Source of the DNA: Clostridia bacterium
Lineage (GTDB): Bacteria; Bacillota; Clostridia; Christensenellales; CAG-1252
Length of the DNA stretch: 62,164 nucleotides
Reading direction: 5' to 3'
Assembly (NCBI GenBank): GCA_017961365.1
Contig: JAGCXI010000068.1
Coordinates: 1-62,164 of the forward strand
Shown here in pieces: positions 4,653 through 59,234 of the stretch; the stretch's first letter is position 1; every line of letters begins with the position of its first letter. The notes beneath the pieces are model-generated. The model did no database searches. It was not told the origin of the DNA and saw only the letters and a program-made list of their open reading frames with translations. Made by a program: the position numbers and the translations under genes.

Positions 4653-4730
<78 letters not shown>

Positions 4731-4736
4731 TTTTGT

Positions 4737-4813: not shown

Positions 4814-4819
4814 TATAAT

Positions 4820-4894
4820 GGCCCCTTGGTCAAGCGGTTAAGACATCGCCCTTTCACGGCGGTTACATGGGTTCGAATCCCGTAGGGGTCACCA
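4820..4894 (+). tRNA. tRNA-Glu (TTC)
   Basis: GGCCCCTTGGTCAAGCGGTTAAGACA...CTTTCAC...GGTTCGAATCCCGTAGGGGTCACCA. Close to Bacillus-type tRNA-Glu. Confidence 0.9.
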
Positions 4895-5067: not shown

Positions 5068-5144
5068 TTCGGGATTTTGACGCGCCCATAAAGCGAGTCA
5101 AAATCCGTTTTGTATTCACTCGGAATTTTGGTGTTTGAAATTCT

Positions 5145-5558: not shown

Positions 5559-5585
5559 ACGATTTCCTCCTTTTTGACATCTGTT

Positions 5586-6398: not shown

Positions 6399-6429
6399 AG
6401 AAATAACTCCTTAAAATTTTTGCAAAGGG

Positions 6430-40680: not shown

Positions 40681-42264
40681 TCACCCCTTGCTTAGGCAAA
40701 AATAAAAAATGTCGGAAAAATCCGACATTTTTCTGGTTGGTGGGCAGTAACTCTTTTGTTTAGAACTCTGGGAACGCAAAGAAGAGGGGGTTGTTTCCGC
40801 TATTTCGGACTCAACTTTTTGAAGTTGTTCTTTAGTCTTTTTCAGAGTGGGGAAATCGTCCGTAAAGTTATAGGTTATTACTATTCTATCATCATATAAT
40901 AGCACCTCTCGCACGAAGGTATTTATCAGCTGTTTTTTGAGATCAATATTGGTCGGATCGGTAAAGAACTCTGCCCTCAAAAAGTCCTCGATTTGCTCGA
41001 CGGTCAAATAGGCAAAATTACGGTTTTTCTCTTTCTCAATATCCACGTCAAGGATGGCGATTTCGGTTTCAAGTTCTTTCAGCCTGCTTTTCGTTGCCTC
41101 GGTGATGATCCCTTGTTCAATGGCTTTAATCATATTGGTTTGAGCACGTATCGCATCCCTTTGTTTTTGCTCTAACGCTCGGAGCGCCGTATGATCCTGC
41201 ATACCGTTTTTGTGCATTTTGAAAACCTGTGTGGCGATCTCGTGAATGTTCGCATTTTCGCAAAGAAGCCTCGCCGTCGTATGGACGACGATATCCTCAA
41301 TCACTTGTTTCTTGATTGCGCGCGTCGGACACTTTTTCTTCCGCCCTCTACCGGGGAGACAATCATAATAATAGTGGGTAGCGCCCGTCTTGGAACGTCC
41401 GCTGACACCGGACATCCTTCGTTTGCAGTTACCGCAAAACAGTTTCCCCGAAAGGATGAAGTCGCAAATCTCTTTCTTGCGGCAGGGAGCAAGCTTGTTT
41501 TCCTCGTTTATTGCGCTAACGGCTCTCCATAATTCCTCGGAGATGATGCGAGGGAAGATCTTGTCATAAACGATGCCTTGATGTTCGACGATTCCCGTAT
41601 AACGCACATCGTGTAAAAGGTCGTAAAGGTATTTCAAGTTAAGCGGTCTGCCGTTCTTCCTTCGATACCCCCGCTTCTCAAAATTAGCCAAAATGGCAGG
41701 GACGGTGTATCCCTTTGCATACTCCGTGAAGGCTTCAATGACGATATTGCTTTCGTATGGATTGATGACGCACCTTTTATCTACGACGTCGTATCCGAAA
41801 ACCGCTTTGCCCCCTCCGGTCTGACCTTTGCTCCAGCTCTCCCTCAGCCCGCGATTGACCTTTTGTTTCAGCTCCGCCGAATAGTATTGGTTCATACCCT
41901 CCAGCAAGCTTTCGAGGATGATACCCTCGGGGCTGTCGGGAATATTCTCCATCGCGGATACGAGTTTGACGCCGTTTTCTCTCAAGGTGTGTTTATGGAT
42001 AGTCGTTTCGTACTTGTCTCGAGAAAAACGGTCTAACTTGTAGACCAAAACGATCTCCCATTGACCTTTGGCACTATCTCGAATCATCCTCTGGAAATCC
42101 GGTCTCATATCGTTCGTGCCCGACATCGCGCGGTCGATATAGGTATCCACGATCAAAATATCGTTGCTTTTGGCGTAATCCTTACAAACGCGGAGTTGTC
42201 CTTCGATCGACTGCTCCGTTTGGCTATCGCAGGAATACCTTGCATAAATCACTGCTTTCTTCAT
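40681..42264 (-). CDS. Large serine recombinase (integrase)
   Basis: MKKAVIYARYSCDSQ...SIEGQ (resolvase catalytic Ser domain), recombinase domain, Cys4 zinc ribbon CGNCKRRM...YYYDC, and a coiled-coil C-terminal region. 527 aa. Confidence 0.88.
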   Translation of the reverse strand: MKKAVIYARYSCDSQTEQSIEGQLRVCKDYAKSNDILIVDTYIDRAMSGTNDMRPDFQRMIRDSAKGQWEIVLVYKLDRFSRDKYETTIHKHTLRENGVKLVSAMENIPDSPEGIILESLLEGMNQYYSAELKQKVNRGLRESWSKGQTGGGKAVFGYDVVDKRCVINPYESNIVIEAFTEYAKGYTVPAILANFEKRGYRRKNGRPLNLKYLYDLLHDVRYTGIVEHQGIVYDKIFPRIISEELWRAVSAINEENKLAPCRKKEICDFILSGKLFCGNCKRRMSGVSGRSKTGATHYYYDCLPGRGRKKKCPTRAIKKQVIEDIVVHTTARLLCENANIHEIATQVFKMHKNGMQDHTALRALEQKQRDAIRAQTNMIKAIEQGIITEATKSRLKELETEIAILDVDIEKEKNRNFAYLTVEQIEDFLRAEFFTDPTNIDLKKQLINTFVREVLLYDDRIVITYNFTDDFPTLKKTKEQLQKVESEIAETTPSSLRSQSSKQKSYCPPTRKMSDFSDIFYFCLSKG

Positions 42265-42560: not shown

Positions 42561-42790
42561 GTCCGATATGCTGTTCTCACCAAGGAAAAGGAGGATGAAA
42601 AAGATCGTGAACAAGAGTACTGCTTTACGGCGAAATGAAGACCCGAGGAAGGTATGCGCGGTGGGTGTTCCCAAGTTTTCCAATCTGCCCAAACAAGACG
42701 CAAGCGTCTTGTTTTCCGCTCTCGTATCAATCGTAAACGAGCATTTCAAAGTGACATCGAAAAAAGGTTAAAAAACTTTCTTTCGGGGTC

Positions 42791-42819
42791 TTGACAGACA
42801 CCTTTTTATGATATATAAT
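42791..42819 (+). promoter_or_regulatory. Consensus sigma-70 promoter driving the plus-strand genes of the element
   Basis: TTGACA (42791-42796), 17-nt spacer, TATAAT (42814-42819). Confidence 0.65.
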
Positions 42820-42940
42820 AGCCTTGCGATATGAACAAATGTTCGTATTAAATAAGGCAAAAAGAGGTAAAAAGGACTGATAAAATGCAAAAATCTAGCG
42901 GCTTGTGTGTGGCGACCTCTTATACGGGAGGTGAGATTAT

Positions 42941-43135
42941 ATGCAAGACAAATGGATTGCCCCGCTGGAGCGATACTGCGGAAACTGCGGAATGCACCTA
43001 TACGGATGCGCGGATGCAAAAGGATTTGTGAAATTTCAATGTCCCCGCTGCGGTATGGTGTGTACGATGAAAAAGAAAAGCAGGAGGTTGGTGCATATTG
43101 AGGAATATGCGCCGCAAGGAGAACAATTTATATAG
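42941..43135 (+). CDS. Small double CxxC zinc-ribbon protein
   Basis: GGGAGGTGAG RBS. CGNCG...CPRCG, 64 aa. Confidence 0.6.
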   Translation: MQDKWIAPLERYCGNCGMHLYGCADAKGFVKFQCPRCGMVCTMKKKSRRLVHIEEYAPQGEQFI

Positions 43136-43330
43136 AATAACGACGGTAAGGTCTGTCGGCTGAAAAAGCGCCGGGTGTTGTGTAAATCCTTATCAGGTCA
43201 TATTCCGAAAACAGTCGGAAGTTAATCCGAGAAAATCGAGAGGCTCCGACGGATGGATTTTTCCTTTATGGGAAGGGTCTGTCTGTCGGGGCCTTTTTTG
43301 TTCTCCTCAAAAAAATCAAAAAACTTTTAC

Positions 43331-43355
43331 GAATATGAAAAATGCCTTCATATTC
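43331..43355. promoter_or_regulatory. Perfect 9-7-9 palindrome GAATATGAA-AAATGCC-TTCATATTC upstream of the HTH gene (candidate operator)
   Basis: Read from the sequence, 50 nt upstream of the ATG at 43406. Confidence 0.55.
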
Positions 43356-43405
43356 GCCAAATAGAATGCAATCGTAAGTTCGGAAAAAGGAGGTGAAGAT
43401 CGGAA

Positions 43406-43747
43406 ATGACGGCGACGGAAAGACGGCAAGCCATCTTGGAAACGTTGTGTGTCAGACGCCACGAAACGAGCGCAAATCTCGCGTTCGAGTTCGGCGTAAC
43501 TGTTCGCACGATCGTTAATGATGTGTTGCTTCTTTCGCTTGAATATCCGATCTATACCCAGAAAGGCGGTGGCGGCGGCATTTTTGTAGAGAATGGTTAC
43601 TATCTTCACAAATCGCGCTTTGCCGATGCTGAACTGGATGTTTTGGAGGAAGCGCTCCCTTACTTTTCCGGAAAGAAAAGGGAAATACTGCTCGGAATAA
43701 TTTTGAAACACGGAGGTGAAAAACGACATGGAAAAAAGCATCAATGA
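43406..43747 (+). CDS. HTH (DeoR/HTH_11-type) DNA-binding protein
   Basis: AAAGGAGGTGAAG RBS. ERRQAILETLCVRRHETSANLAFEFGVTVRTIVNDV is a winged-HTH pattern. Confidence 0.65.
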   Translation: MTATERRQAILETLCVRRHETSANLAFEFGVTVRTIVNDVLLLSLEYPIYTQKGGGGGIFVENGYYLHKSRFADAELDVLEEALPYFSGKKREILLGIILKHGGEKRHGKKHQ

Positions 43748-43976
43748 TTTGCTTGAAGGAGCAACTAACGTTTATCGGACGCGGGATTACATTGTGAAGC
43801 AAGAGATCGAAGTATTGGTCAATCGCCATGATAACAATGCCGTAGTCAGTCATGATACGTTCATTCGTCGAACGAAGCTTCGGGATAGATTCTATGAGAT
43901 CCTGTTCTGCGCTCGTAAGAATATCGACGGAAAACGCTTGCCCAGCACTATGTACGATCGAAAGTACGTAGTCTAA
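43728..43976 (+). CDS. Hypothetical protein
   Basis: ATG at 43728 after GGAGGTG. Overlaps the end of the HTH gene. 82 aa. Confidence 0.45.
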   Translation: MEKSINDLLEGATNVYRTRDYIVKQEIEVLVNRHDNNAVVSHDTFIRRTKLRDRFYEILFCARKNIDGKRLPSTMYDRKYVV

Positions 43977-44214
43977 TCAATTTGGGTTTATCGAACGCAG
44001 AGATATAACCGATCGTTCGAGCGGTACTTGCAAGATAAGAGTGGCCACTCACCGTAAGAAATCGCCCGAAACGAGATGTTTCAACAAATTGCGTTCGTTA
44101 CCGATACAACTGAATAGCGGCAAACAGATCTGAGCGAGGAGCTGGATCAAAAAAAGCCGCACCGCTGTGCTATCGGCGTCACGGGCAACGATACCACAAA
44201 GAGGAGGAAACAAT

Positions 44215-44499
44215 ATGTCGAACAAATCGTCCGGAGCGGGCTCTGCCGGTAAGTACAACAACCGCAGATGGTCCGTTCCTTCCAAGCGTGCAAAAGCATA
44301 CGCGGAAGACAGAAAGGCGAAAGTCCATACCTATGGTAAGAAGGAAGGTCAGCAGCTCACCGACTACGAAGCCGGTATGCGTTCCGGTTACCTGCAATGC
44401 CAAGGGGATCACGCCGGTCTGTACAAGTACAAGAAAGCCCTTGCGGAGGGCAAATCTAAGAGCGAGGCAAAGAAGATCTCGCAACAGAAAAAGAAATAA
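44215..44499 (+). CDS. Lys-rich small basic protein (candidate nucleic-acid-binding protein)
   Basis: ATG at 44215 after AGAGGAGGAAACAAT. 94 aa with a KKISQQKKK tail. Confidence 0.55.
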   Translation: MSNKSSGAGSAGKYNNRRWSVPSKRAKAYAEDRKAKVHTYGKKEGQQLTDYEAGMRSGYLQCQGDHAGLYKYKKALAEGKSKSEAKKISQQKKK

Positions 44500-44517
44500 A
44501 AGGAGGAAAAACAGAGA

Positions 44518-44859
44518 ATGAGCAACAAGATTTTTGTGGAAAGAGACACCTACGAGAGTAAGGGTAAGACCTATTACTCTTATTTCATCAAGGGACAAAT
44601 CAGAGGTAAGGACGTTCGCGTCGCCATCGTTCCCCCGGATCTCGGCGGATATGCCGTTTTGGAGATCGTCTTCGGAGAAGCTATGGCTGCGGAACTCATC
44701 GCCAAACCGTTTGAGATCAAGGACGACAAGACGGGTTCCGTCATCAGCGGAAACACCTATATGGTCCGCACCGAAGACGAAAACGGCATGGTGTACGAGT
44801 GCAATGTCAAGCCTTTCCGTTCGTCCGATAAATCGCTTCTCAATATGCTTTTGAGATAA
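44518..44859 (+). CDS. Hypothetical 113-aa protein (candidate ssDNA-binding/OB-like; speculative)
   Basis: AAAGGAGGAAAAAC RBS. Beta-strand-rich sequence. Its position resembles gene V in filamentous phages. Confidence 0.5.
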   Translation: MSNKIFVERDTYESKGKTYYSYFIKGQIRGKDVRVAIVPPDLGGYAVLEIVFGEAMAAELIAKPFEIKDDKTGSVISGNTYMVRTEDENGMVYECNVKPFRSSDKSLLNMLLR

Positions 44860-44870
44860 GGAGGTAAAAC

Positions 44871-45977
44871 ATGGAATTCAGTAAAGAAAAAATCAGATGG
44901 ATCATTATCATCTCGGCAATTCTCGTCATCCTCGGTCTCACGATCGCGGCGGTCGTCGTTTCGCAGAAGCAAGCCGCGCAAGTAAATGAAACCGTGTCGG
45001 AATTGCTCCTTGAGGATAACTCGGAAACCCTTTCGGCAGAACCTATCGCCATCACGACCATTTCCGGAAGCGGCATTATGGTGCTTGAAAAACCGATGTA
45101 CCTTGGTGCCGGTGACGGCGGTAGCGGCGATTCTGCGTTCGCAAAGACCCTCACCGCAACCGTCCTTCCCGTGGACGCACCGGATAAGAGCGTGGATTGG
45201 TCTGTCGCTTGGGCATCGGACGCAAGTCGTAGTTCCCAACAGGTTAATCAGTATATTACTGTTACCCCGAATGCAGACGGCTCTAACGTCGCAGTCGTTC
45301 GTTGCTTGAAGAGTTTCGAGGGAGACCACATCCTTGTCACGGTCACGACCCGCGTAGGTGGCTTCTCTGCAACCTGTCAGGTGGAGTATGTCGGTGTGCC
45401 GCAGACCATGACGATTAACACGACCGGTAAGACGGTAAAAACCGATACTGCTTGGAACAAGTCCATGGTGGAATTACAGTGCGGTTCGGAATACTATTTC
45501 GACCTCGATCTGGATAACGAACTTCATGCGGTCGGATCTTCGTATGGCAACTATACTTTCTCGGTCGCCGCTTATGGTTCGGTTGACGTCAACGTTCATG
45601 CTCACAACAATTCGACCGGAGAGGATACTTATTCCGTTGAAACGGAAGAGCATAAGGTCGGAGATGTTCTTGAATCAAGTGGCTATATTTATACCTTCTT
45701 CTCTGAGCCCAGTAGTCTTCTCCCGGTGGTTCATGTTGAATTGCGTGATGGCAAACTGTATGTGAAAGCCGAAAGAGCAATTTCTTCGCTCAGTGGGATA
45801 AACGGTAACCGTGGTGGCTATGCCGAGAGATCATTCAAGCAGTACACCGACGGTAAGTGCCCGTATGCCACCATCACCGTGACTGAGACCACGACCGGCC
45901 TTTCCAAGTCTATTAACGTGAAGACCATCGCGACCGTCACGAACGTGAATATGTCTGCCGCAACGATGTCCTTCTGA
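44871..45977 (+). CDS. N-terminally anchored membrane protein with a Big_2-like Ig segment
   Basis: TAAGGAGGTAAAAC RBS. TM segment IRWIIIISAILVILGLTIAAVVV. ...LTATVLPVDAPDKSVDWSVAWASD...ITVTPNADGSNVAVVRCLKSFEGDHILVTVTT..GGFSATCQVEY resembles bacterial Ig-like group 2. Confidence 0.65.
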   Translation: MEFSKEKIRWIIIISAILVILGLTIAAVVVSQKQAAQVNETVSELLLEDNSETLSAEPIAITTISGSGIMVLEKPMYLGAGDGGSGDSAFAKTLTATVLPVDAPDKSVDWSVAWASDASRSSQQVNQYITVTPNADGSNVAVVRCLKSFEGDHILVTVTTRVGGFSATCQVEYVGVPQTMTINTTGKTVKTDTAWNKSMVELQCGSEYYFDLDLDNELHAVGSSYGNYTFSVAAYGSVDVNVHAHNNSTGEDTYSVETEEHKVGDVLESSGYIYTFFSEPSSLLPVVHVELRDGKLYVKAERAISSLSGINGNRGGYAERSFKQYTDGKCPYATITVTETTTGLSKSINVKTIATVTNVNMSAATMSF

Positions 45978-45991
45978 GAAGGAGGTGTCGT

Positions 45992-46585
45992 ATGAGTGGA
46001 AAGAGCGCAAAACTTAAAATAAGCAAGGTCATAACTTACATCTTGATCTTCCTCGTTTTGGTGGGCTGTTTAGGTTTCGTCGCCTATTTCACGAATGGGT
46101 TTACCGGTGATTTCAAAGAGTTCTATGTCAATGTTGACGGCAAGAACGTACTGGCAGAAGCGGAGGGGTATATGCTCGCAGCAGACGCCCCTCTATCCGC
46201 AAACGTCAAATACACGTTCGGCGCCATAAGCAAAGACATTTCGGGCTACCATCTCGCAGTCCTTCCCGCGACGGATTTCACCTTTACCGTAGATGGTGAA
46301 GAACACAAGTTCGCCGACGAGAAGGACCTCTCCGCGGGTTTTGAGATCATCGAAGGCGAGGAGGAGTTCACGCTGACGCCGAAGGGCTCGCTGATGGATA
46401 TCTTACAGGCAGTCTATTCGGATACGGAGATCGTTATGGATAAGAGCCAAATCTCCCTAGACAAAGACCTTTTTAAGGTCGTCGTCTATTCCGAGGACAA
46501 GTCCGCGAAGGTCGTCATCGGTTGCCGCCTCAAGGATCCCTTTATGGAGGGTGTGAGGTTGGATAAGGAGGTGATCACGTTTTGA
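45992..46585 (+). CDS. N-terminally anchored membrane protein
   Basis: GAAGGAGGTG RBS. TM segment VITYILIFLVLVGCLGFVAYF. 197 aa. Confidence 0.6.
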   Translation: MSGKSAKLKISKVITYILIFLVLVGCLGFVAYFTNGFTGDFKEFYVNVDGKNVLAEAEGYMLAADAPLSANVKYTFGAISKDISGYHLAVLPATDFTFTVDGEEHKFADEKDLSAGFEIIEGEEEFTLTPKGSLMDILQAVYSDTEIVMDKSQISLDKDLFKVVVYSEDKSAKVVIGCRLKDPFMEGVRLDKEVITF

Positions 46586-48003
46586 CCAGAGAGATTAGAA
46601 CGAGAGTAATCATTGGTTTTCTCGCTCTGATCTTGGGGGTAGGTGTCGTCCTATTGATGGCACTTTCCCCCACTATGGCAAGCGCGGAAACCAAAACCTA
46701 TTCGGGCGTATTGTCCGATCTCAAGCGCGACGCTACCTTCAAAGAAAGTAACTATCCGGAGAACCCAACGGACTATTCCCTCTCTATCATCCAAATAGCG
46801 GAGAGCGAGGACAGCGAACTATTCTTGTATGTCTACCAACCGAGCCGAAAGACCAAGGAACTGGCGGCGTGCTCGATCAATATCTCCACGACCATCAACG
46901 ATGCCATATCGTTCACGAACTATAAGCTGGAACTGCTAAATAGCAGCGGCGTGTTCTGCAAGTATAAGGTCAAGGATTTCACGGTACGGACGGATCCCGT
47001 CAGGTACTATGTCATCACTTCAATCTATCGTCCCTTCGACGAGTCCATAGACCTAGGAACGGGAAACAGCAATACCATTACCGAAGTCAACTACGCCGTG
47101 AACAAGCAATACTGTTTCGGATCGATCAACGGCAACCCGTACTGTTCCGTCGTGGATATAGAGACCATCGTCGTCACGGATAAGTTTGTCGGCTTCGTTC
47201 GTTACCCGGACGGATTCAAGCTGTATATCGGCGCTTGTGACGCTCACTTCGTCGCGTTCAACACGGACCGACCTATGGACAAGCTCTTAGAAGCTGACGT
47301 GTATTACACGCAACAGAAATACGAGATGTCCTCCGCAATGATCGTCGGAAAGCAAGAAACCTTCGGGACCAAAGAGGACAAGTATGCCTATTTGAAGTAC
47401 ACGGATAAGGTGGAACACAATGGCGGAGGTTGGTTCGCCGGGACGTACCGATGGGATCGTATTCAAACGGTTTCGGATTTCATATCCAAAGAAAACCGTG
47501 AGAATATTTACCATGGCGCCATCCTCGATGTGGAGACCTCTTCCAAGCTGACGGATGCGGCTCTTAGGGAGCTTCAAGGGAAACAATGGGTGTTGCGTTT
47601 CGCCGAAACGAGCTATGAGTTCAATTCGGTAAACGGTGTCACTTGGCAATTTTCATCCATCGTAGGTGACGTAACCATTCTGCGCTTGAAGTTCGAAACA
47701 GACGGTATCACCTATAACCTCGGTGTGATCGATAACAAGCAAACGGGAAGCACGGAGCCTGTGAATGAAGTAGAGTATGAGGTCAGCGTTTCAAGTCGAG
47801 CAAAGAAACTGCTCATGCTGTTGCTGTTGATCTTACTGCTCATCATCCTTGCACCAATCCTGCCCTATATCCTGAAAGTCGTGTTTTGGATCATCACACT
47901 ACCGTTCAAGATCCTCGGCGGCATTCTGAAGGCGTGGAAGAAAGCCAGAGAGAAACGGGCGGAGAGAAGGAATAAACCGCCACAACGAGATCCCACGGGA
48001 TAA
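46582..48003 (+). CDS. Protein with a signal-like N-terminus and a C-terminal TM anchor plus basic tail (adsorption/spike-like topology)
   Basis: TTG start after AAGGAGGTG, overlapping the upstream stop. N-terminus ...VIIGFLALILGVGVVLLMALSPTMASAE. C-terminus KKLLMLLLLILLLIILAPILPYILKVVFWIITLPFKILGG...KKAREKRAERRNK. Confidence 0.6.
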   Translation: MTREIRTRVIIGFLALILGVGVVLLMALSPTMASAETKTYSGVLSDLKRDATFKESNYPENPTDYSLSIIQIAESEDSELFLYVYQPSRKTKELAACSINISTTINDAISFTNYKLELLNSSGVFCKYKVKDFTVRTDPVRYYVITSIYRPFDESIDLGTGNSNTITEVNYAVNKQYCFGSINGNPYCSVVDIETIVVTDKFVGFVRYPDGFKLYIGACDAHFVAFNTDRPMDKLLEADVYYTQQKYEMSSAMIVGKQETFGTKEDKYAYLKYTDKVEHNGGGWFAGTYRWDRIQTVSDFISKENRENIYHGAILDVETSSKLTDAALRELQGKQWVLRFAETSYEFNSVNGVTWQFSSIVGDVTILRLKFETDGITYNLGVIDNKQTGSTEPVNEVEYEVSVSSRAKKLLMLLLLILLLIILAPILPYILKVVFWIITLPFKILGGILKAWKKAREKRAERRNKPPQRDPTG

Positions 48004-48077
48004 CCGAAGGATCACAATCAAACGGGCGTCGGCGGAGAAATCTGTCGGCGCCTTACTTTTATAAAGGAGGAAAAACA

Positions 48078-48209
48078 ATGAAAACAGTAAAAAGAATCGT
48101 GGCAGTCCTTGTGGTTGTCCTGATTATCGCCGTTGTGTCCTATATGGTCTATACGGCAAAACAAATAGATATGGATCAAGTCAAGGAGGCTGCCTATGCG
48201 AGTGCGTAA
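48078..48209 (+). CDS. 43-aa single-TM protein (candidate major coat/virion membrane protein). Not in the supplied ORF track.
   Basis: TAAAGGAGGAAAAACA RBS. MKTVKRIVAVLVVVLIIAVVSYMVYTAKQIDMDQVKEAAYASA. The stop at 48207-48209 overlaps the next gene, which starts at 48196. Confidence 0.5.
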   Translation: MKTVKRIVAVLVVVLIIAVVSYMVYTAKQIDMDQVKEAAYASA

Positions 48210-50310
48210 AGCATTGAATATCATCCTAACGGTCGCCTTATCCGGTTTGTTCCTATTGTTCGGGTACCGACATTTCACCGGATCGTATATCCGCCTCGGA
48301 GAGAGTTTTAAGGACTTGTTCGGGAGTTTGAAATACTACTTCTATATGCTCTTTGATAAGCCCGTGGGAGAAACGCCGCACGTCGCCGAGTATTCCGAGT
48401 TCGTGAAGTGGGAGATCCTACTTCCCAAAGACTTTGAAACCTTCAAATCGGGAGCTGCGGCGTACTTCAAGGCGCTGTTCAACGGCAAGAACTTCGTAGG
48501 CTGGCTGACCTCGGCACTGACCGATGTGGGAGGCTTCGCTAAGGTAATGATGTTGATCCTGCCGTGCATTGTCGTGGGAATCATCGTCATTAAGCGTATC
48601 TATGGACAGGAGAATACCGATCACGGCAAGGACACGGTGCCGTTGCGCGTCTATAAGTTCATATCGAAGAAAACCTATCAACCGACCAAGGGCTTTGTGC
48701 AGCAATACATAGAGTTCATAAAGGCCAATTCGTGGATTTTGATTTCTTGGGCGGTCTTGTGGGGCTTGCACTTCAATCTCGGCGCGATCGTCGTTGAGTT
48801 CTTCGCGTATTACTTCTTCTTTTCGGTATCATTCGGTTGGGAGACTTTGTACGTGCAGTTCGTCAAGCTCGTACTGGATCTTCAAACGATTATACGCTTC
48901 TTCCCGTGGTGGGTGCTAGCGTTCTTCGCCTATGCGATCTTCCATCATATTCGCAAGAAGATTGCACTTGCTCTGCTCCGAAACTACGAAGCGAGGAATT
49001 GCGGATTCATCAACAGCCTGCCGATCGTGTCTATCACTTGCGGGAGCATGGGCAAAAAGAAAACCACAATGATCACCGACATGACTCTCTCCCAAGAGGT
49101 TATGTTTCGGCAGAAAACCTTTGAGATCATCCAAAAGGGAGATATGCAATTTCCACACTTCCCGTGGATCCACTTTGAGGACGAACTGCTCCGCTGTATG
49201 GAACACGGCACCGTCTATAATCTCGCAACCGTTAAGGCTTGGGTGGCAAAGAAACAGGAGCGGTACGAAAAGCATCACAACAGCGACTTGCAACTCTACG
49301 GATACGATACCAAACGCTACGGTCTCGTGTATAACGATGCCCTGAAACCTCGCCATCTCTTCGAGGTCTTAGAAACCTATGGGCAGGCGTACTTTATCTA
49401 TGCCATGCAGACGAGCCTCATCGTAGCGAATTACTCCGTGCGAACGGACAACGAAATGGTGTCGGTCGGCAACTTCCCGATGTGGTTGACGGACTTTTTC
49501 GCCGAGGAGCGACGGAACAGTAGGCATTCTCATATCTTGGACTTTGATGTACTACGCCTCGGTAAGAAAGTGATGGAGAGCAATCCCAACGCAGGCAGTT
49601 TCGAGTTCGGTGTGGTAGCTATAACGGAGATCGGGAAAGAGCGCGGCAACAACCTTGAGTTGAAAGAGATCAAGAAGAAAAACGACGAGACCAACCAAAA
49701 GAACGACCTCTTCAATTCGTGGCTGAAAATGTGCCGTCATTCGGCGACCGTGGATAATTTCCCGTTTATCAAGGTGTTTACCGACGAACAACGGCCCGAA
49801 AGTTGGGGAGCGGACGCACGGGATCTTTGCGACATCGTGAATATCGCTCAAGCGGGAGAAACTAAACTTGCGCTGCCGTTCTACACCATAGAGGAAATGC
49901 TGTCCGAGTGGGCGTATAGCTGGTTCATTTCGCTGTATTACGACTTCCGCTATCGTCGAGGGGACAATACTCTCCTTGTGCACATCTTGAAGTCCGTGAC
50001 ATCGTGGCTTTGGAAACGAAATCATCGGATCTATAACCGTTTCGGGTACTCCGAATTGAAGGTTGAAAAGGAACGCGGGACGATGGACGGTCGCGCGGAA
50101 AGCAAGAAGTATTACCTCATGCACAACAAGATTTACAGCGGCAGGTTCACGACGGACTGCTTTTCGGATTATTTCAACGACTTAGCGAAGAAGACGCCGG
50201 TGGGACTCTTGGATTATCCGGAGTACGAGACCGAGAAAGCAAGCATCGACGAGCTGAAAATGCAGAACAGCTATTTCATCAATTCGCTGTATAAGGACGA
50301 GGAGGAATAA
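48196..50310 (+). CDS. 704-aa protein: N-terminal polytopic membrane domain plus a cytoplasmic domain with a deviant P-loop (candidate assembly/extrusion ATPase)
   Basis: AAGGAGG RBS. About 4-5 hydrophobic helices in residues 7-250. ITCGSMGKKKTT (residues 281-292) is Walker-A-like. FGVVAITEIG is a possible Walker B. Confidence 0.6.
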   Translation: MRVRKALNIILTVALSGLFLLFGYRHFTGSYIRLGESFKDLFGSLKYYFYMLFDKPVGETPHVAEYSEFVKWEILLPKDFETFKSGAAAYFKALFNGKNFVGWLTSALTDVGGFAKVMMLILPCIVVGIIVIKRIYGQENTDHGKDTVPLRVYKFISKKTYQPTKGFVQQYIEFIKANSWILISWAVLWGLHFNLGAIVVEFFAYYFFFSVSFGWETLYVQFVKLVLDLQTIIRFFPWWVLAFFAYAIFHHIRKKIALALLRNYEARNCGFINSLPIVSITCGSMGKKKTTMITDMTLSQEVMFRQKTFEIIQKGDMQFPHFPWIHFEDELLRCMEHGTVYNLATVKAWVAKKQERYEKHHNSDLQLYGYDTKRYGLVYNDALKPRHLFEVLETYGQAYFIYAMQTSLIVANYSVRTDNEMVSVGNFPMWLTDFFAEERRNSRHSHILDFDVLRLGKKVMESNPNAGSFEFGVVAITEIGKERGNNLELKEIKKKNDETNQKNDLFNSWLKMCRHSATVDNFPFIKVFTDEQRPESWGADARDLCDIVNIAQAGETKLALPFYTIEEMLSEWAYSWFISLYYDFRYRRGDNTLLVHILKSVTSWLWKRNHRIYNRFGYSELKVEKERGTMDGRAESKKYYLMHNKIYSGRFTTDCFSDYFNDLAKKTPVGLLDYPEYETEKASIDELKMQNSYFINSLYKDEEE

Positions 50311-50313
50311 GGT

Positions 50314-51213
50314 ATGCCATTTGAAGAAACGAAAGTATATTACGACGGTAGCCATTACGTGGCGATTCCCCACACCGAACGAGGTTCCCGAAAGCGTAAA
50401 AAGCTAAAGGAAGAGCCGATCGTGGTGGAGAATAGAACAACTACGCGGAAGGAGCTGTTCAATGATTTGTACGCCTCGTCGGAAAGCAAGACCAAACGAA
50501 GCAAGAAGAAGGAAATTACCGATCAGATGAAAGACTTTTTCCCCAATAAAAAGGACGCGGATATGTTCGTGGAAGAGAACTTCCAAAGGAAACGTCGCAA
50601 TCTTATTTGTCGAAGAACAAGGCTCTTTCGGAAGGCAGCGATGCAGGAGTTCAATTACTTTTGTACCTTCACCTATGATCCTCAAAAGATGGACGAAGAT
50701 ACTTTTCGAACAAAGCTACAATATGTGTTTAGACACAATAGCACGCGCAAAGGCTGGAAGTATATAGGGGTATGGGAGCGATCCCCGGAGAAGCACAGAC
50801 TTCACTTTCACGGGATCTTTTATATCCCCGACGGTACAATGCTCGGTGAATTTGAAGAAAAGAGCGATTACAGCATCGGAGACGCCAAACGGAGAAAGAC
50901 GAAGCAGAACACTTACTTCGCGGAACGCTTCGGGCGAAACGTCTTTGATCGCTTGGAACACACCACTGATGCAAATCGATCTTTGACGTACATTATAAAG
51001 TACCTCGAAAAAACGGAAGAACGGATCGTGTATTCCAAGGGAATGAAGCAATATTTCATATCGGATGTGATGGAGGAAGACGTCGCTTGTCCGTGCGGCA
51101 TCGGCGACGCAAAGCTTCTTTTATTCGATGACTTCATCTGCTACGATCAAGGGGAAATCAAGGGACAAGTATCGCCGAAAGTCATAGCGGAAATGCGGAA
51201 AACAGATTCGTGA
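50314..51213 (+). CDS. HUH-superfamily rolling-circle replication initiator (two-tyrosine, superfamily I type)
   Basis: AGGAGGAATAAGGT RBS. Motif 1 FCTFTY (116-121), motif 2 LHFHGIFY (H164-F-H166), motif 3 YIIKYLEK (Y226, Y230). Confidence 0.75.
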   Translation: MPFEETKVYYDGSHYVAIPHTERGSRKRKKLKEEPIVVENRTTTRKELFNDLYASSESKTKRSKKKEITDQMKDFFPNKKDADMFVEENFQRKRRNLICRRTRLFRKAAMQEFNYFCTFTYDPQKMDEDTFRTKLQYVFRHNSTRKGWKYIGVWERSPEKHRLHFHGIFYIPDGTMLGEFEEKSDYSIGDAKRRKTKQNTYFAERFGRNVFDRLEHTTDANRSLTYIIKYLEKTEERIVYSKGMKQYFISDVMEEDVACPCGIGDAKLLLFDDFICYDQGEIKGQVSPKVIAEMRKTDS

Positions 51214-51349
51214 TAAAGAACCGAAAAAGCAAACTGCATTTCGCCGCCGAGAGGAAACGAGGGCGCGACGCAAGCGGATTAGCGCGACCGCCCCGTCCTC
51301 CGCGGCGCAGTTGCTTCGGTTTTGATCGAATCGCCGCGCGCTATGCGGG

Positions 51350-51469
51350 CGTGTGCTTGTTGGCGGATCGAAGCGCGGCGACAGCCGCGCGAAGAGACGC
51401 CACTTGATATATACAAGCACACGTCCGAGTGCCAATTGTATTATCAAGCTTGTTTTATACAAGCACACG
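51350..51469. repeat. ori-like repeat cluster downstream of rep: ACAAGCACAC(G) in three copies (inverted at 51350-51360; direct ATACAAGCACACG at 51411-51423 and 51457-51469) plus the GC hairpin GCGCGGC-GACA-GCCGCGC (51373-51390)
   Basis: Read from the sequence. Confidence 0.6.
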
Positions 51470-51691
51470 CATTACTGCCAATCGAGGTTTTTTAGGTATT
51501 TTCGGTCAAAAACACAGTTGCTCTTTCGCTCGATTTTTCAGTAAAAATAGCTGTGGCTATTTGGAGCAGAGAGAGCGGCTTGATAAATATTTGCTAAGGT
51601 CTATTATTATGCTTTTTTGCGGTTTGTTCGACACCAGACACATACTTTGCATTGAACGACACTAACTTGTATTTTAAATAACTCTTGGTTC

Positions 51692-52939
51692 TTAATTTAT
51701 CGTTTGATTACTATATAGCAGTTTAATACTCTCTTTTAGTGAAGGCTCCCGATGAATTCCAAGAGCCAATAAGAATTCGACATATAGCTTTTTTTTCATG
51801 AATTCATATTCGTCATCACTTATAATATCGTTATAAACCACCGGATTTGTTATAATGAGATTTCGATCCAATCTAACATCATAATTGTTATCGTTCACAA
51901 ACACATTTTGGCAGTTTATAAGAGACAAGCAAACAAAGATTTTTCTATTGCTAAAAATGTTTTTAAAAACACTGGTATAGCTTTCTAACAAGCCTCCCAA
52001 TTGATTCCATAATGGGCACCATTCAAAATAATCTTTGCCGGAACTAGCATGACGTAATAAATCTCCTTGATTTAAGGGGCAAAGACATTCTACAATTCCG
52101 TTATATGTTATTAAACCTTCATAATTTCTGTAATCGCTTTCAGGTGAGGCGATGAATCTTAGCCCGTCCACACTGGGCAAAGATGTATGTCCACAATTAA
52201 AATGATTAAAGATATCACTAAATTTAATATGCTTAATAATACTTAACGCAAAAGGATTAATATTATAACTTGAATCAATAAACGTTTCAGGAATTAAATG
52301 AATAAGTAAAAATTTTTTACCATTATCCCAATTTATATTTGTTTTATCTTCGCAAAATTTTATCCGATCTAACCGAAAATTATAGATTTCTTTTTCCAAG
52401 ATAATTGATTGATTAAATCTATTTTTAAGTTCATTATAAGTCATAGAAAATTTCCTGTTCCCGTTTCTTGTGTATGCATAATATCTACATTGGTTTTCTA
52501 AAAATAAATATGGTGCAAAGTTATCGCTCTGAATGAACAAAACAACAACATATTTACCATTTTCAAGTTTGATAAAATGAAAAATAATAAAAGGAGTTTT
52601 GGGAAATATAGACAAAAGGTTGTTACGTCTTTCTTGTTCAAATGAATCCGTATTGTTGTTAGGAATATTAATCCCAACTATGTTCGTAGCTATACCATTT
52701 TTTTCAGAAATTCCAAAAATTAAATATCCACCTTCGGAATTAGCAAAAGAACAAACGTCGTTTTTAAATTCAACTATTTTTTCATTTCGTTTATTATCGT
52801 TTTTATCAAATTCTAGAAAAGCAAAATTTTCCTTGTAGTCTATATATTCGTTCTCTCTATAATCTTGGTTATCTAAGAGAAGTTTTAATTCATCCTCATT
52901 TATTTCTGTAAATGATTTCCCATTAATTGTTGGTAGCAT
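51692..52939 (-). CDS. AlbA_2 (Schlafen-like, divergent AAA_4) DNA-binding-domain protein with an unknown ~300-aa C-terminal domain
   Basis: ATG at 52939. ...ENEYIDYKENF........IVEFKNDVCSFANSEGGYLIFGISEKNG matches the AlbA_2 core (E..fK...........i....aFANt.GG.l.iGv). Confidence 0.65.
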   Translation of the reverse strand: MLPTINGKSFTEINEDELKLLLDNQDYRENEYIDYKENFAFLEFDKNDNKRNEKIVEFKNDVCSFANSEGGYLIFGISEKNGIATNIVGINIPNNNTDSFEQERRNNLLSIFPKTPFIIFHFIKLENGKYVVVLFIQSDNFAPYLFLENQCRYYAYTRNGNRKFSMTYNELKNRFNQSIILEKEIYNFRLDRIKFCEDKTNINWDNGKKFLLIHLIPETFIDSSYNINPFALSIIKHIKFSDIFNHFNCGHTSLPSVDGLRFIASPESDYRNYEGLITYNGIVECLCPLNQGDLLRHASSGKDYFEWCPLWNQLGGLLESYTSVFKNIFSNRKIFVCLSLINCQNVFVNDNNYDVRLDRNLIITNPVVYNDIISDDEYEFMKKKLYVEFLLALGIHREPSLKESIKLLYSNQTIN

Positions 52940-52943
52940 AGTT

Positions 52944-53309
52944 TTACTCCATAGTTTTGATTTTCGACTCGATATAAGATTGTTCTTCCACAGTAAGATA
53001 GTCACTCAAATCGACGCCCAATTTAACAAGCCCTTTACAGCCAAGCGCACATAAAAAATGACGTGCCGATAAGTATTTATCCTTCATTGTCTTTGGTTTG
53101 TGGGTGTTTATTCTATTCCATATTTTCATTTCTTCCTGATGCTTATTCGCTATCTCGACAATATGCTTGTTCATTTCGTGGAACCTTTGATCTAGGTATA
53201 AAAAATCCAGTTTATTCAGATCACGTTGAATATCATTTATATCATGACGGTCCTTAAACACATCAAAAAGTTTACGAAAATTATCCATTTCGTTAGGTTT
53301 CAGTTCCAT
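52944..53309 (-). CDS. Hypothetical 121-aa helical protein
   Basis: AAAGGAG RBS. The stop lies 4 nt before the AlbA_2 gene ATG. Confidence 0.55.
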   Translation of the reverse strand: MELKPNEMDNFRKLFDVFKDRHDINDIQRDLNKLDFLYLDQRFHEMNKHIVEIANKHQEEMKIWNRINTHKPKTMKDKYLSARHFLCALGCKGLVKLGVDLSDYLTVEEQSYIESKIKTME

Positions 53310-53386
53310 CTCGGGACTCCTTTTTCCGCATTAGGGCGTATTTCATGTGTTTTCACTTTAACATTTGTTGAAAACCTAGATGCCAT
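53300..53386 (-). CDS. Candidate 28-aa leader ORF (MASRFSTNVKVKTHEIRPNAEKGVPRWN)
   Basis: AAAGGAGAATTTATT-ATG. Its stop overlaps the ATG of the 121-aa gene (AGATGGAACTGA). Too short for the ORF track. Confidence 0.25.
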   Translation of the reverse strand: MASRFSTNVKVKTHEIRPNAEKGVPRWN

Positions 53387-53421
53387 AATAAATTCTCCTT
53401 TCTAAATATTATTTGTTTATA

Positions 53422-54168
53422 TCATATTAAATCAGATCTCAAAATACTATCATATGAAATCGATATTTTATCTATCTCATATAAACGTGAATTTATTGCC
53501 TTACAGTCTTCCGAGTAAAAGAAGACTAACACATCTCCATCAGGATGCAAAGAACTTTGAAATACAACACCATCGAACCCCATATTTATAAACTGTCCTG
53601 CCAAGTACTGAGTAAACCAATAGTTATGCCCCGAATAATGTGGCCGTGAAAATTCTTCAGCTATTCTTGAAATAAGATAGCTTAATACTTCATTATCAAT
53701 TAATTTTGCTGATACATTTTTTCGTAAATCGGCAAAATTTAAATCCCGTGTTGTTATAAATTCTGCTATGGAAATTCTTTCATGTTTTATGGGGCGTAGT
53801 TCATATATAACTGTTGTTGGATTGTTACAAGTATAAAGAAATGACTGTCCTTTACAATTAAGCCTCCCTTCTGCTGCAAGTTCGTGAGGTGGCGCGCCAG
53901 ACTTATCTGCATCATATCCTTGAAAAACCTCCTCATCTGAATCAATAAATTTATCAAAGTCCTCGCTATTAGAAACTACTTCATCCAAATTAAAAATACG
54001 TCCTCTAAAAAAGGATAAGCCCTCTTTTATTCGACAAGAAAATAGTCCTCTATTTTTTTCTAATATAGATAAAAAAGGGTTTCTCGTATCAAATCTATTA
54101 AATTTTACAATCGTTTCTTTCCAATGATAAAAATCAAAACGAACTTTATTTCTTAACTGTTTATCCAT
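53422..54168 (-). CDS. RES-domain protein with an N-terminal extension
   Basis: ATG at 54168 after TAAGGTG. GRLNCKGQSFLYTCNNPTTVIYELRP (R...E) and FDGVVFQSSLHPDGDVLVFF (S) match the RES (Arg-Glu-Ser) domain pattern. Confidence 0.65.
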   Translation of the reverse strand: MDKQLRNKVRFDFYHWKETIVKFNRFDTRNPFLSILEKNRGLFSCRIKEGLSFFRGRIFNLDEVVSNSEDFDKFIDSDEEVFQGYDADKSGAPPHELAAEGRLNCKGQSFLYTCNNPTTVIYELRPIKHERISIAEFITTRDLNFADLRKNVSAKLIDNEVLSYLISRIAEEFSRPHYSGHNYWFTQYLAGQFINMGFDGVVFQSSLHPDGDVLVFFYSEDCKAINSRLYEIDKISISYDSILRSDLI

Positions 54169-54209
54169 TGTGCACCTTATTGTTTTTCTGATACTTTGCA
54201 AAAGCAATT

Positions 54210-58253: not shown

Positions 58254-58262
58254 TTTAGCCCC

Positions 58263-59234
58263 TCATTTCCTCAGTAAGTTGACGAATTTGATCTTCTTTC
58301 CCGTTTCCCAGTCCTTTACGTAGCAATATATCCCGTTGTGCTTTTTGTGATTGTTTTTCTTGCAGCCATCACACATTTCTTCGTGGACTTCTTCTCCAAA
58401 AAAAGTGTAGTCCACGACTTTTTCATTATGGCAGCTATTCGGAATGACAAACTTTAATCCATCCATTTGCCAAATATTCCAAGAGAGGATCTCGGCGACC
58501 TCGCGCAAGTATTCTTTGATAGGATAGACGCCGAATTTGTTTTCATAATGATCGGTGAAGGTGAACAGTAAGTTTTCACGGGCAAGCAGCACGTTATCTC
58601 CTTGCCAATCATAGCCGTATATACTCTTAAAAGCTTCTTTTGCCCATTCGTACCATTCTTGCTCGCCGTCGATGTTTTCCGAAACGACGCGCAGTTTGCG
58701 ATCCAAAAGTCCGATACGGTCTTTAACCTCGATAACTTCACCTGTCACGGTATCATAACGGCTTGCAAGGTAAGGGGCCTCGCCGCAAGTTATTTCAAGA
58801 CGTTGTGCTTTGACATAGTCTTGCCAAGTTTTCCCCTCCGGGAACACTATCTTTTCGGAATTGGTCGTCCACCCTTTTTCTGTTTCGGTGTTGAAGACGC
58901 CCTCGCATCCAAACCAAGCGTTATCTACGAGATTGTTTTGTTGATTGCATATCCAAGACGGGGTGAAAACTTCCGCTTTATCGCGGACACGGGAAAGCTG
59001 CTCCTTCTTGCTCTTTTCGGTTCTTGGGCGGATCAAATTACCGCTTTTTCCGGTGATGGAATAAATCGTAATATAGTCGCTTGCGCTGTATCCGTTGCCG
59101 TTTGAAATATAGTCATCCGTTGCCCATATCAGATTCTTCCCGGACGAATTGTCTTTCAGCAGGATTGACAAAAGTTGAGCGTCACGCTCCAATATTCTAT
59201 TTTCTTTGACGTCAACCCGTATTTCTTTTGCCAT
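58263..59234 (-). CDS. Methyltransferase-fold-like protein lacking the (N/D)PP(Y/F) catalytic motif, with a C-terminal Cys/His cluster
   Basis: AEVFTPSWICNQQNNLVD (motif X-like) and LEITCGEAPYL (motif I-like). No PP dipeptide anywhere. C-terminal CHNEK...CDGCKKNNHKKHNGIYC. 9-nt gap to the fusion gene. Confidence 0.6.
   Translation of the reverse strand: MAKEIRVDVKENRILERDAQLLSILLKDNSSGKNLIWATDDYISNGNGYSASDYITIYSITGKSGNLIRPRTEKSKKEQLSRVRDKAEVFTPSWICNQQNNLVDNAWFGCEGVFNTETEKGWTTNSEKIVFPEGKTWQDYVKAQRLEITCGEAPYLASRYDTVTGEVIEVKDRIGLLDRKLRVVSENIDGEQEWYEWAKEAFKSIYGYDWQGDNVLLARENLLFTFTDHYENKFGVYPIKEYLREVAEILSWNIWQMDGLKFVIPNSCHNEKVVDYTFFGEEVHEEMCDGCKKNNHKKHNGIYCYVKDWETGKKIKFVNLLRK

Follow-up and report, generated by a model that had tools for sequence, protein, structure and literature searches.

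The question raised by the locus at 42.8-51.7 kb of contig JAGCXI010000068.1 from a Clostridia bacterium of the Christensenellales (GenBank assembly GCA_017961365.1) is what kind of mobile element combines a rolling-circle initiator with a row of mostly membrane-anchored proteins and an orphan ATPase, and by which route the DNA of such an element would leave its cell. A reading made from the letters of the DNA (the sequence-only reading in the following) had taken this part of the 62,164-nucleotide stretch analysed here (the window) for a compact integrated replicon with the gene logic of inoviruses, plectroviruses or pleolipoviruses. As judged from comparison with related loci, the segment is the conserved core for regulation, export, and replication in an integrated member of a large family of rolling-circle integrative elements from gut Clostridia that has not been described before. 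We tentatively favour, at a probability of roughly 0.4, its interpretation as a new temperate, non-lytic, membrane-assembled virus-like element with single-stranded DNA (ssDNA), which would resemble inoviruses and plectroviruses by analogy, with no demonstrable homology. As an integrative rolling-circle element it belongs to a kind that is already known, and its export module is what may be new.

Gene organization and distribution of the core

Downstream of a perfect sigma-70 promoter, eleven plus-strand genes occupy 42.9-51.2 kb, of which the last eight, from K94 to Rep, form the core (Table 1). The sequence-only reading described this layout well: the promoter agrees with the consensus at 12 of 12 positions, all credible open reading frames (ORFs) between 42941 and 51213 lie on the plus strand, each with a GGAGG-type ribosome-binding site (Shine-Dalgarno sequence) 5-10 nt upstream, and the eight listed ORFs were recovered in the same order, with the same lengths and, as judged from hydropathy, with the membrane topologies claimed for p368, p197, p473, p43, and P704. 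Its description of the ORFs as abutting or overlapping applies to the core spacings of 3-18 nt and to the overlaps, but not to a single 74-nt gap between p473 and p43, which contains a terminator-like hairpin. Likewise, no protein of the module matched terminase, portal, tail, lysin, or type IV secretion system (T4SS) families in the family scans, as had been stated before.

The string of genes does not represent a chance arrangement, because it recurs in 160 independent loci, in which the eight-gene core is near-invariant and all genes are co-oriented (the counts in Table 1 refer to those loci with enough flanking DNA). More than 2900 word-sharing homologues of the ATPase P704 were collected, none of them with a functional name or a Pfam domain, which fall into at least 1184 clusters at 50% identity (617 of them with E ≤ 1e-30). 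Homologues are present in 317 species-representative genomes scanned and on at least 487 metagenome contigs; the carriers mostly belong to the Clostridia, Christensenellaceae or 'Gallimonas', with two to three copies in some metagenome-assembled genomes. No description of the element family was found in the literature, nor of the record MT835493 or the closest viral structure match of P704 (see below). The family therefore appears as undescribed, and its export or morphogenesis module, for which no homologue is recognisable, may represent a new mechanism.

Table 1. Features of the element in the window, with their coordinates, strands, and supporting evidence (aa, amino acids; TM, transmembrane segment; GC, G+C content)
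Feature	Position	Strand	Evidence and occurrence
Large serine recombinase (527 aa), the integrase, which marks the element's left end	40681..42264	-	Pfam Resolvase, Recombinase, Zn_ribbon_recom; PHROG integrase, 8e-99
Consensus sigma-70 promoter, TTGACA-17-TATAAT	42791..42819	+	12/12 positions; sole perfect match in 40.4-52 kb
Four-cysteine Zn-ribbon protein, 64 aa	42941..43135	+	ORF with ribosome-binding site; family homologue upstream in 44/97 loci
Conserved structured non-coding leader between Zn-ribbon and HTH_11 genes	43136..43300	+	72-79% DNA identity to 7 related loci
HTH_11 regulator, 113 aa	43406..43747	+	Pfam HTH_11, 3e-5, 24.3 bits, just below the 25-bit cut-off; in 57/97 loci
orf86, conserved protein of 82/86 aa	43716..43976	+	in 68/99 loci; 82 aa by gene callers; probable ATG at 43728
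K94, 94 aa, very basic (23 K+R), first core gene	44215..44499	+	96/100 loci, ~70-76% identity
b113, 113 aa, soluble, apparently beta-rich	44518..44859	+	96/102 loci, ~64% identity
p368, 368 aa, N-terminal anchor and Big_2 Ig-like domain	44871..45977	+	TM 11-29 (hydropathy); 99/107 loci
p197, 197 aa, N-terminally anchored	45992..46585	+	TM 13-31 (hydropathy); 112/119 loci
p473, 473 aa, TTG start, type-I membrane protein	46582..48003	+	p473 or 650-760-aa variant in 122/125 loci
Terminator/attenuator-like hairpin between p473 and p43	48024..48053	+	intergenic DNA conserved in loci L001, L002, L069
p43, 43 aa, single TM, basic N-terminus, acidic C-terminus; gene overlaps that of P704	48078..48209	+	94/148 loci despite small size
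P704, 704 aa, polytopic membrane domain (~1-270) and orphan P-loop ATPase	48196..50310	+	Walker A at residues 283-290
HUH rolling-circle Rep, 299 aa	50314..51213	+	PF23343 REP_ORF2-G2P, E 2e-10, 41.3 bits versus cut-off 27.8; after P704 in 141/143 loci
Origin cruciform	51347..51470	+	conserved in ~45/63 related loci; bulge ~190 nt 3' of the Rep gene
Low-GC cargo: SLFN/AlbA_2, RES-domain protein, Type IIG restriction-modification enzyme, Type II methyltransferase	51692..59234	-	Pfam, PADLOC; GC 28-46%

Extent and integration of the element

The core belongs to larger integrative elements. Its relatives bear a serine or a tyrosine integrase and measure about 20 to 35 kb, of which 0.5-14 kb are cargo. 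Since these relatives are att-bounded units that include a repressor, the cargo, and a block of ArdA, PcfJ, and PcfK genes, the segment at 42.8-51.7 kb has to be regarded as a core and not as a compact replicon of about 9 kb, as first proposed. In the window, the element begins at the large serine recombinase, which combines the Resolvase catalytic domain with a Recombinase domain and a zinc ribbon and for which 16 of 82 related loci encode a homologue placed and oriented alike, and the element runs on beyond the origin into unrelated low-GC cargo. The GC content of the module (46-51%) differs from that of the flanking chorismate-pathway genes (55-59%). Neither a LexA-type repressor nor the ArdA block was found in this copy within the window.

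The members of the family are mobile elements that carry integrases of different kinds, occupy varying places in the chromosome, and are often present several times in one genome. Together with the HUH Rep and the structurally conserved origin, this bears out the earlier description as an integrated rolling-circle element. An empty integration site was sought, and every contig that encodes the identical left-flank protein of the host and extends beyond the junction contains the element.

The record MT835493.1, labelled 'UNVERIFIED: Bacteriophage sp.', holds a family member of about 35.3 kb (positions 10895-46294 of the record). This member is inserted in tRNA-Arg(CCT), which borders it together with a partial repeat of the tRNA; a tyrosine integrase lies at its one end and the ArdA block at the opposite end. 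As the DNA around the element holds ordinary bacterial genes, the record is a fragment of a bacterial chromosome.

Rep and the origin of replication

The assignment of Rep as a two-tyrosine HUH initiator holds, as the protein scores above the gathering cut-off of PF23343 and keeps the catalytic motifs FCTFTY, HFHGIFY, and YIIKY of the family consensus; it differs from its relatives only in the absence of their acidic linker. The Pfam title of PF23343 is 'Replication-associated protein ORF2/G2P', and we take the family to be a group of ssDNA-phage initiators.

The repeats that had been called ori-like are also real, consisting of a 46-bp direct repeat (starting at 51413 and 51459) inside a conserved cruciform. 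The 5' arm of the latter, GCGTGTGCTTGT (51349-51360), is followed by an inner hairpin and then by the bulge CACTTGATATAT (51401-51412), which includes CTTGATA (51403-51409), and the 3' arm ACAAGCACACG is present twice, at 51413-51423 and 51459-51469. This arm and its flank (ACAAGCACACG......TGCCAAT) are tandemly duplicated over 51413-51469 with a 46-bp period, and either copy can close the outer stem; the duplication may have been left behind by rolling-circle termination that went wrong. At 140-200 nt past the Rep stop codon, the same order, GGCGTGTGCTTGTC-hairpin-CTTGTATCAA-GACAAGCACACGCC, is seen in about 45 of 63 related loci. In most relatives the plus strand of the bulge reads CTTGTATCAA and the minus strand CTTGATAC, and the bulge contains a nick-like motif, CTTG(A/T)AT.

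In an alignment of 35 cruciform sequences, 90% of the cells pair and 15 of the 28 pairs are compensatory, compared to at most 50% pairing in slid controls. The covariation score of 0.218 (0.058 in shuffles) was reached by none of 500 shuffled alignments, and the DNA fold of the window copy amounts to -42 kcal/mol (z = -6.5). While the inner hairpin and the flanks of the outer stem covary, the core of the outer stem is invariant, suggesting sequence-specific recognition. The inner hairpin is capped by GCGNAGC (N, any base) in 31 of the 35 loci; the window copy is a variant in which this mini-hairpin has been swapped for a longer GCGCGGC-GACA-GCCGCGC hairpin. DNA-specific mini-hairpins of the sequence GCGNAGC are known from the sites at which complementary-strand synthesis is primed in the ssDNA phages G4, St-1, and alpha3 and from ssiA of RSF1010 (PMC13037366). 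Since the loop keeps its G and A only when read on the plus strand, we infer that this strand becomes single-stranded and is the displaced one.

Compared to rolling-circle origins of the phiX174/pC194 type, where the nick consensus is CTTG/ATA (the slash marking the nick), the element shares the two-tyrosine Rep (YxxKY) and, in the window copy, the CTTGATA in an unpaired part of the origin. From this precedent and from the plus-strand-specific mini-hairpin, the nick is predicted to occur on the plus strand in the unpaired CTTG(A/T)AT bulge. The mini-hairpin of the relatives corresponds to the complementary-strand origins of G4 type. Unlike in either of these systems, both signals are nested here within one cruciform. 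Measured against the genomes of the Tubulavirales, the Rep and the origin are present and the ssDNA-specific mini-hairpin speaks for a single-stranded stage, but the elements are 20-35 kb in size and no circular form was seen among the fetched loci.

The orphan ATPase P704

Hydropathy places at least four transmembrane (TM) segments of P704 on the N-terminal side of the P-loop. This order had been recognised before, as a difference from classical inoviruses, and is confirmed; ORF2 of the plectrovirus SpV1 is TM-first as well. The Walker A motif reads GxMGxGKTT in the family consensus and GSMGKKKT in this copy, and K289, E478, N485, and R533 are invariant among 128 P704 representatives. An AlphaFold (AF2) model based on an alignment of these diverse representatives reached a pLDDT (predicted local distance difference test) of 95.4 and a pTM (predicted TM-score) of 0.90, compared to a pLDDT of 49 with a shallow alignment. 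It predicts a helical membrane domain of about 270 amino acids, followed by an alpha/beta P-loop domain of about 430 amino acids.

Foldseek returned no match of this model in the PDB with an E-value below 0.1; the weak top folds (E 0.1-0.4, TM-score up to 0.33) were HerA and the packaging NTPase B204 of STIV2. The only BFVD match below 1e-3 is an unnamed protein of 269 amino acids (A0A894JLK1), and the next-ranked, weak ones are ORF286 of ATV, a corticovirus protein, and a poxvirus A32-like ATPase. P704 has no match in Pfam, NCBIfam, or PADLOC, and no consistent one exists among 66 relatives. A homologue on plasmids was not found in PLSDB.

Aligned with hhalign, P704 and the SpV1 ORF2-like family reach a probability of 55-58% in the profile-profile comparison (29% with the single SpV1 ORF2 sequence), with the collinear motifs Walker A, SNY, Walker B, and RH..QR. 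The controls gave 41% for an ABC ATPase (single sequence) and 8% for the FtsK motor, and a specific likeness of P704 to pI, to which the 55-58% might have pointed, was discarded in view of these values. P704 was also considered as an ABC half-transporter and rejected, as the alignment beyond Walker A is noise and Foldseek did not return an ABC exporter. P704 is therefore treated here as an orphan ASCE P-loop protein, which may belong to the FtsK-HerA class. The ASCE fold of that class has Walker A, Walker B with a catalytic Glu, and an arginine finger; in P704, K289, E478, and R533 are invariant, and the fold matches to HerA and STIV2 B204 are weak.

Small and membrane-anchored core proteins

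Six of the eight core proteins are without a function assignable by family scans. K94 does not match any family in Pfam, PHROG, or NCBIfam-type scans and is a candidate DNA-coating or DNA-binding protein; some relatives encode a second basic protein of K94-like composition (69-99 amino acids). The second gene product, b113, shows neither a family match nor similarity to pV of M13 nor detectable relatives of known function, and would at most be a candidate ssDNA-binding protein.

Among the membrane-anchored proteins, p368 occurs with one to four paralogues in relatives. The Ig-like segment of Big_2 type that had been noted in it is confirmed on the family level, as 10 of 47 members match Big_2 (best E 4e-6). 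By hydropathy, the N-terminus of p473 is signal-like (…MASA|E), and a TM segment at the C-terminal end is accompanied by a basic tail. Together with a variant of 650-760 amino acids (c4_675) it forms one family with conserved N- and C-terminal parts and a variable middle, in which neither a Pfam domain nor a cell-wall hydrolase domain was found; p473 is put forward as a candidate adsorption or adhesin protein with a variable ectodomain. Searches of p368, p473, and P704 against PDB sequence profiles gave nothing significant. The only small TM ORF of the module is p43, the topology of which is compatible with an inovirus coat protein, but with reversed charge polarity; no other TM ORF exists among the plus-strand ORFs of at least 20 amino acids in the gap at 43.95-44.23 kb or of at least 40 amino acids elsewhere in the module.

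Regulatory region, cargo, and neighbouring genes

The non-coding leader at 43136-43300 ends in a 20-bp terminator-like hairpin (43244-43291), and its alignment folds into 31 predicted pairs with covariation in the terminal stem. It matched no Rfam family and could serve as a leader RNA with a regulatory role, as an attenuator, or as a single-strand origin. The regulators encoded upstream in relatives comprise HTH_11 proteins, a sigma-70-region-4 protein, a LexA/S24 repressor (45 of 86 loci), and a WYL regulator. A second non-coding segment in front of K94 (44017-44120, within 43977-44214) is conserved at 74-81% in more than ten related loci. It probably serves the structural operon as promoter/operator and may be targeted by the sigma-70-region-4 protein that the relatives have.

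The cargo genes at 51692-59234, which include a Type IIG restriction-modification enzyme of 1347 amino acids, have no homologues in the related loci. An ORF of 121 amino acids and the RES-domain protein of the cargo are possibly a toxin-antitoxin pair. In relatives, the cargo on the 3' side of the origin varies and contains, as judged by eye, methyltransferases and HsdM-like, DUF262-like, and radical-SAM proteins. Beyond it follows a convergent minus-strand block of c14, PcfJ, PcfK/MutS_I … ArdA, in which all detected copies of ArdA (46/46), PcfJ (40/40), and PcfK/MutS_I (16/16) are directed toward the origin. One protein of this block (330-380 amino acids; e.g., within 12117-22109 of locus L011, and in L016 and L044) joins a PcfK-like N-terminus to a MutS domain I, an unusual fusion that might act on entering DNA.

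An XerC/D-like tyrosine recombinase of 302 amino acids (60129-61037) adjoins the restriction-modification genes. Contigs from other samples with this gene end at about 61.1 kb, and these breaks suggest that a repeat or an invertible segment lies there, or else a second island boundary. Elsewhere in the window, the GC content falls to 39-41% at 8001-10000 amid values of 52-57%, which may indicate a small foreign insert, and a tRNA cluster at 3651-4894 consists of three tRNA-Met and one tRNA-Glu genes.

Discussion

The eight core genes are tentatively proposed to constitute an ssDNA export machine of a so far unknown type, in which a polytopic ATPase, five membrane or DNA-binding partners, and the HUH Rep with its nick and priming cruciform would move elements of 20-35 kb from one gut clostridium to another without a T4SS or a known capsid. 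The membrane proteins and the ATPase probably export the ssDNA of the element, either as a virus-like particle or directly into another cell. If the element is virus-like, the following course of events can be envisaged. It would reside in the chromosome by means of the serine recombinase, whose gene and position are given in Table 1, and would be excised upon de-repression; relatives encode a LexA/S24-type repressor, and in this copy only the Zn-ribbon, HTH_11, and orf86 genes stand behind the consensus promoter. Rep would nick the plus strand in the CTTG(A/T)AT bulge of the cruciform and drive rolling-circle synthesis, and the displaced plus strand would be coated by the basic K94 and by b113 as small, abundant proteins. 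As suggested by the architecture and the invariant catalytic residues of the ATPase, the coated strand would be handed over to a membrane complex of P704 and p43 and be released non-lytically along with p368, p197, and p473, which are anchored in the membrane, whereupon the variable ectodomain of p473 would select the next host. In the new cell, the mini-hairpin would prime complementary-strand synthesis, and in relatives the ArdA/PcfJ/PcfK genes, templated by the entering strand, would protect the DNA.

Several features argue for this virus-like interpretation: the phage-type Rep, a gene order (pIII-like protein, small TM protein, ATPase, Rep) as in Propionibacterium phage B5, and the plectrovirus-like architecture of the ATPase; the near-invariant eight-gene core with its covarying origin cruciform and the GCGNAGC mini-hairpin; the basic candidates for DNA coating, the variable receptor-type protein, and the multi-copy Ig-like protein; the weak fold matches of P704 to HerA, STIV2 B204, and corticovirus and poxvirus A32-like proteins; and the LexA-type repressors of relatives, combined with the lack of a lysis gene, a T4SS gene, or a plasmid homologue. 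The use of a T4SS by all ssDNA conjugation known to us points in the same direction.

A considerable number of results weigh against it. Canonical membership in the inoviruses was rejected, as no Zot, PHROG, BLAST, or HMM (hidden Markov model) similarity to proteins of M13, B5, SpV1, or MV-L1 was seen, and HMMs of all element families found nothing in M13, B5, MV-L1, SpV1, or L2. A PHROG search with P704 gave no match, nor did Zot match any of 66 diverse P704 members at E ≤ 1. Note that Pfam Zot recognises pI of M13 (181 bits) and Orf8 of B5 (25 bits) but misses ORF2 of SpV1, so that distant pI-like proteins can be missed by a Zot scan. The profile similarity of P704 to SpV1 ORF2 does not exceed that to the control ABC ATPase. 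An inovirus-type major coat protein was not found in the module; p43 shows the reversed polarity and is located after an attenuator hairpin. No terminal overlaps indicating circular genomes occurred in the fetched loci, many of them complete contigs; circular contigs, which had been proposed as a check, were thus absent among these loci, and IMG/VR contains only two loci with homologues. The single match among the 50,697 phage records of INPHARED is chromosomal. Finally, elements of up to 35 kb with 0.5-14 kb of cargo are large for known filamentous phages, and ArdA, PcfJ, and PcfK are typical of conjugative elements.

The gene logic of inoviruses, plectroviruses, and pleolipoviruses that the sequence-only reading had seen is therefore retained in part: it is reflected in the gene order of B5 and the TM-first ATPase of SpV1, but the suggested homology check did not reveal specific similarity of any protein to those of inoviruses, plectroviruses, pleolipoviruses, or phage L2. 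B5 (Paulinoviridae) shares a rolling-circle Rep and the order Orf6-Orf7-Orf8-Orf9, which parallels p473-p43-P704-Rep. Unlike in the element, its Rep belongs to Rep_1 instead of PF23343, and its Orf8 matches Pfam Zot, which P704 and 65 relatives do not. In SpV1-R8A2B, the TM helices of ORF2, the presumed pI counterpart, precede the P-loop, and the signal-bearing, C-terminally anchored ORF1 of 715 amino acids resembles the p473/c4_675 architecture; moreover, the hosts of the Plectroviridae are of a lineage related to the Firmicutes. SpV1 ORF2 (7492..232) consists of two N-terminal TM helices followed by GKLGTGKT. It comprises 337 amino acids and aligns with P704 no better than the ABC control does, and SpV1 contains neither another similar protein nor a Rep of the PF23343-type family. 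Tubulavirales in general have circular ssDNA genomes of about 4.5-12 kb with a rolling-circle initiator, and a major coat protein 30-90 amino acids long that has one TM segment, an acidic outer end, and a basic DNA-facing end. Proteins of pI type with an N-terminal TM domain have been accepted by Roux et al., who class pI as an FtsK-HerA ATPase with Zot as the closest domain and one or two TM domains (PMC6813254), compared to at least four TM segments in P704. The filamentous phages of Gram-positive bacteria and the inoviruses of gut Clostridia, from which secreted inoviruses are known (PMC10061712), share with the element the lack of secretin and lysis genes and pursue a temperate or chronic lifestyle in Firmicutes (PMC10061712, PMC8530359). 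They have genomes of 5.6-9.4 kb and coat proteins of 30-60 amino acids (PMC8530359), and in those of gut Clostridia Zot stands alone and the coat protein can be recognised (PMC8530359, PMC10061712), whereas the element contains a 704-amino-acid ATPase with a polytopic domain of 270 amino acids, no recognisable coat protein, and up to 35 kb of DNA.

Pleolipoviridae and Plasmaviridae (HRPV-1 and Acholeplasma phage L2) resemble the element in their set of Rep, signal-bearing and C-terminally anchored spike, small membrane proteins, and NTPase, as well as in non-lytic release and flexible genome size, the likeness being one of gene logic only. Their hosts, unlike the Clostridia, lack a thick cell wall. 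Homology to pleolipoviruses, plasmaviruses, or corticoviruses was tried and rejected, as VP8, ORF7, and ORF1 of HRPV-1 and the L2 proteins remained unmatched (VP8 hhalign, 0.4%).

The statement that the module does not follow the logic of a conjugative element is not borne out, as the anti-restriction block of the relatives favours just such an interpretation, which stands as the main rival and appears possible, if somewhat doubtful. The locus would then be the core of a T4SS-independent integrative and conjugative element (ICE), with Rep as relaxase, the cruciform as oriT, and P704 as a membrane DNA pump in the role of a coupling protein or translocase, while p368, p197, p473, and p43 would provide a mating junction and adhesins. 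The plus strand would enter with its 5' end first, and ArdA, PcfJ, and PcfK would form the leading region. Rolling-circle-type initiators do act as relaxases in ICEs and integrative mobilisable elements of Firmicutes (MOB_T/Rep_trans families). As the block invariably lies on the minus strand, convergent on the origin, its template would be the displaced plus strand, given the nicked strand predicted above. This orientation, seen in relatives (the block is not in this window), fits the rule that leading-region genes of conjugative plasmids are templated by the transferred strand (PMC11541004), if the plus strand is indeed displaced. Such an element would also account for the methylase and defence cargo beside the origin, the flexible element size (e.g., about 35 kb in MT835493, with its tRNA-Arg repeats and tyrosine integrase), the near absence from virus collections, and the lack of circular contigs.

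Known counterparts are the ICEs of Firmicutes and those of actinomycetes (AICEs, pSAM2-type), which likewise combine a terminal integrase (with a tRNA target in one relative of the element) with a repressor and defence or methylase cargo; the ArdA/PcfJ/PcfK block is oriented as in their leading regions. AICEs in particular possess a rolling-circle Rep, one membrane DNA-translocase ATPase, and small membrane proteins. However, P704 is not FtsK/TraB-like, as also seen from the 8% obtained with the FtsK motor, the family of Rep is of ssDNA-phage type, the host is a unicellular and not a mycelial bacterium, and no T4SS proteins are present. Among the recurrent gene families located up to 10 kb from P704 in the first 83 related loci, only some of which families were Pfam-scanned, and likewise in the module of the window, no VirB4, VirD4/FtsK-type coupling protein, VirB6, or cell-wall hydrolase was found, and 66 P704 members are without such Pfam matches. 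To our knowledge, every ssDNA conjugation system uses a T4SS with VirB4. In addition, the conjugative interpretation does not provide an obvious role for the abundant, very basic K94 and has to cope with the lack of plasmid-borne homologues in PLSDB.

It is improbable that the locus represents an integrative mobilisable or otherwise non-autonomous element, the integrase, Rep, and origin of which would move via a helper, while the membrane proteins and the ATPase serve surface exclusion, transport, or host fitness. Such an element would be compatible with the six core proteins without assigned function, with the missing LexA-type repressor and ArdA block of this copy, and with the presence of the element in all contigs that encode the identical left-flank host protein and extend beyond the junction. 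However, the eight genes share one orientation and translational coupling, and more than 90% of the 160 loci have inherited them jointly with Rep over 30-70% protein divergence; moreover, the catalytic residues of P704 are invariant in the 128 representatives. This pattern argues for a single machine that is under selection and linked to replication. A membrane-containing icosahedral virus of PM2, FLiP, or PRD1 type, with P704 as packaging ATPase and p368 or its paralogues as capsid proteins, is very unlikely despite the rolling-circle Rep of PM2 and the weak matches of P704 to STIV2 B204, a corticovirus protein, and P9 of PM2 (hhalign, 14% over 171 columns), because p368 consists of an N-terminal TM anchor and a Big_2 Ig domain without a jelly-roll signature, an element of about 20-35 kb with 0.5-14 kb of cargo is hard to fit into a fixed capsid, and no lysis gene is present.

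The family escapes the current annotation of viruses, plasmids, and ICEs, as there are no Pfam, PHROG, or NCBIfam models for it and only the two matches in IMG/VR. In view of its cargo of restriction-modification, methylase, and other defence genes, the family is likely to provide a major path for gene flow among the Clostridia of human and animal guts, one that has so far gone unrecognised. The conserved origin cruciform and the confidently modelled orphan ATPase offer immediate experimental handles, and the family as a whole is a clean system for studying how ssDNA leaves or enters Gram-positive cells without a secretin or a T4SS. If the proposed export of ssDNA is true, the elements would represent either a new high-rank lineage of viruses or a novel phage-assembly-like mode of conjugation, which would bridge filamentous phages and conjugative elements.

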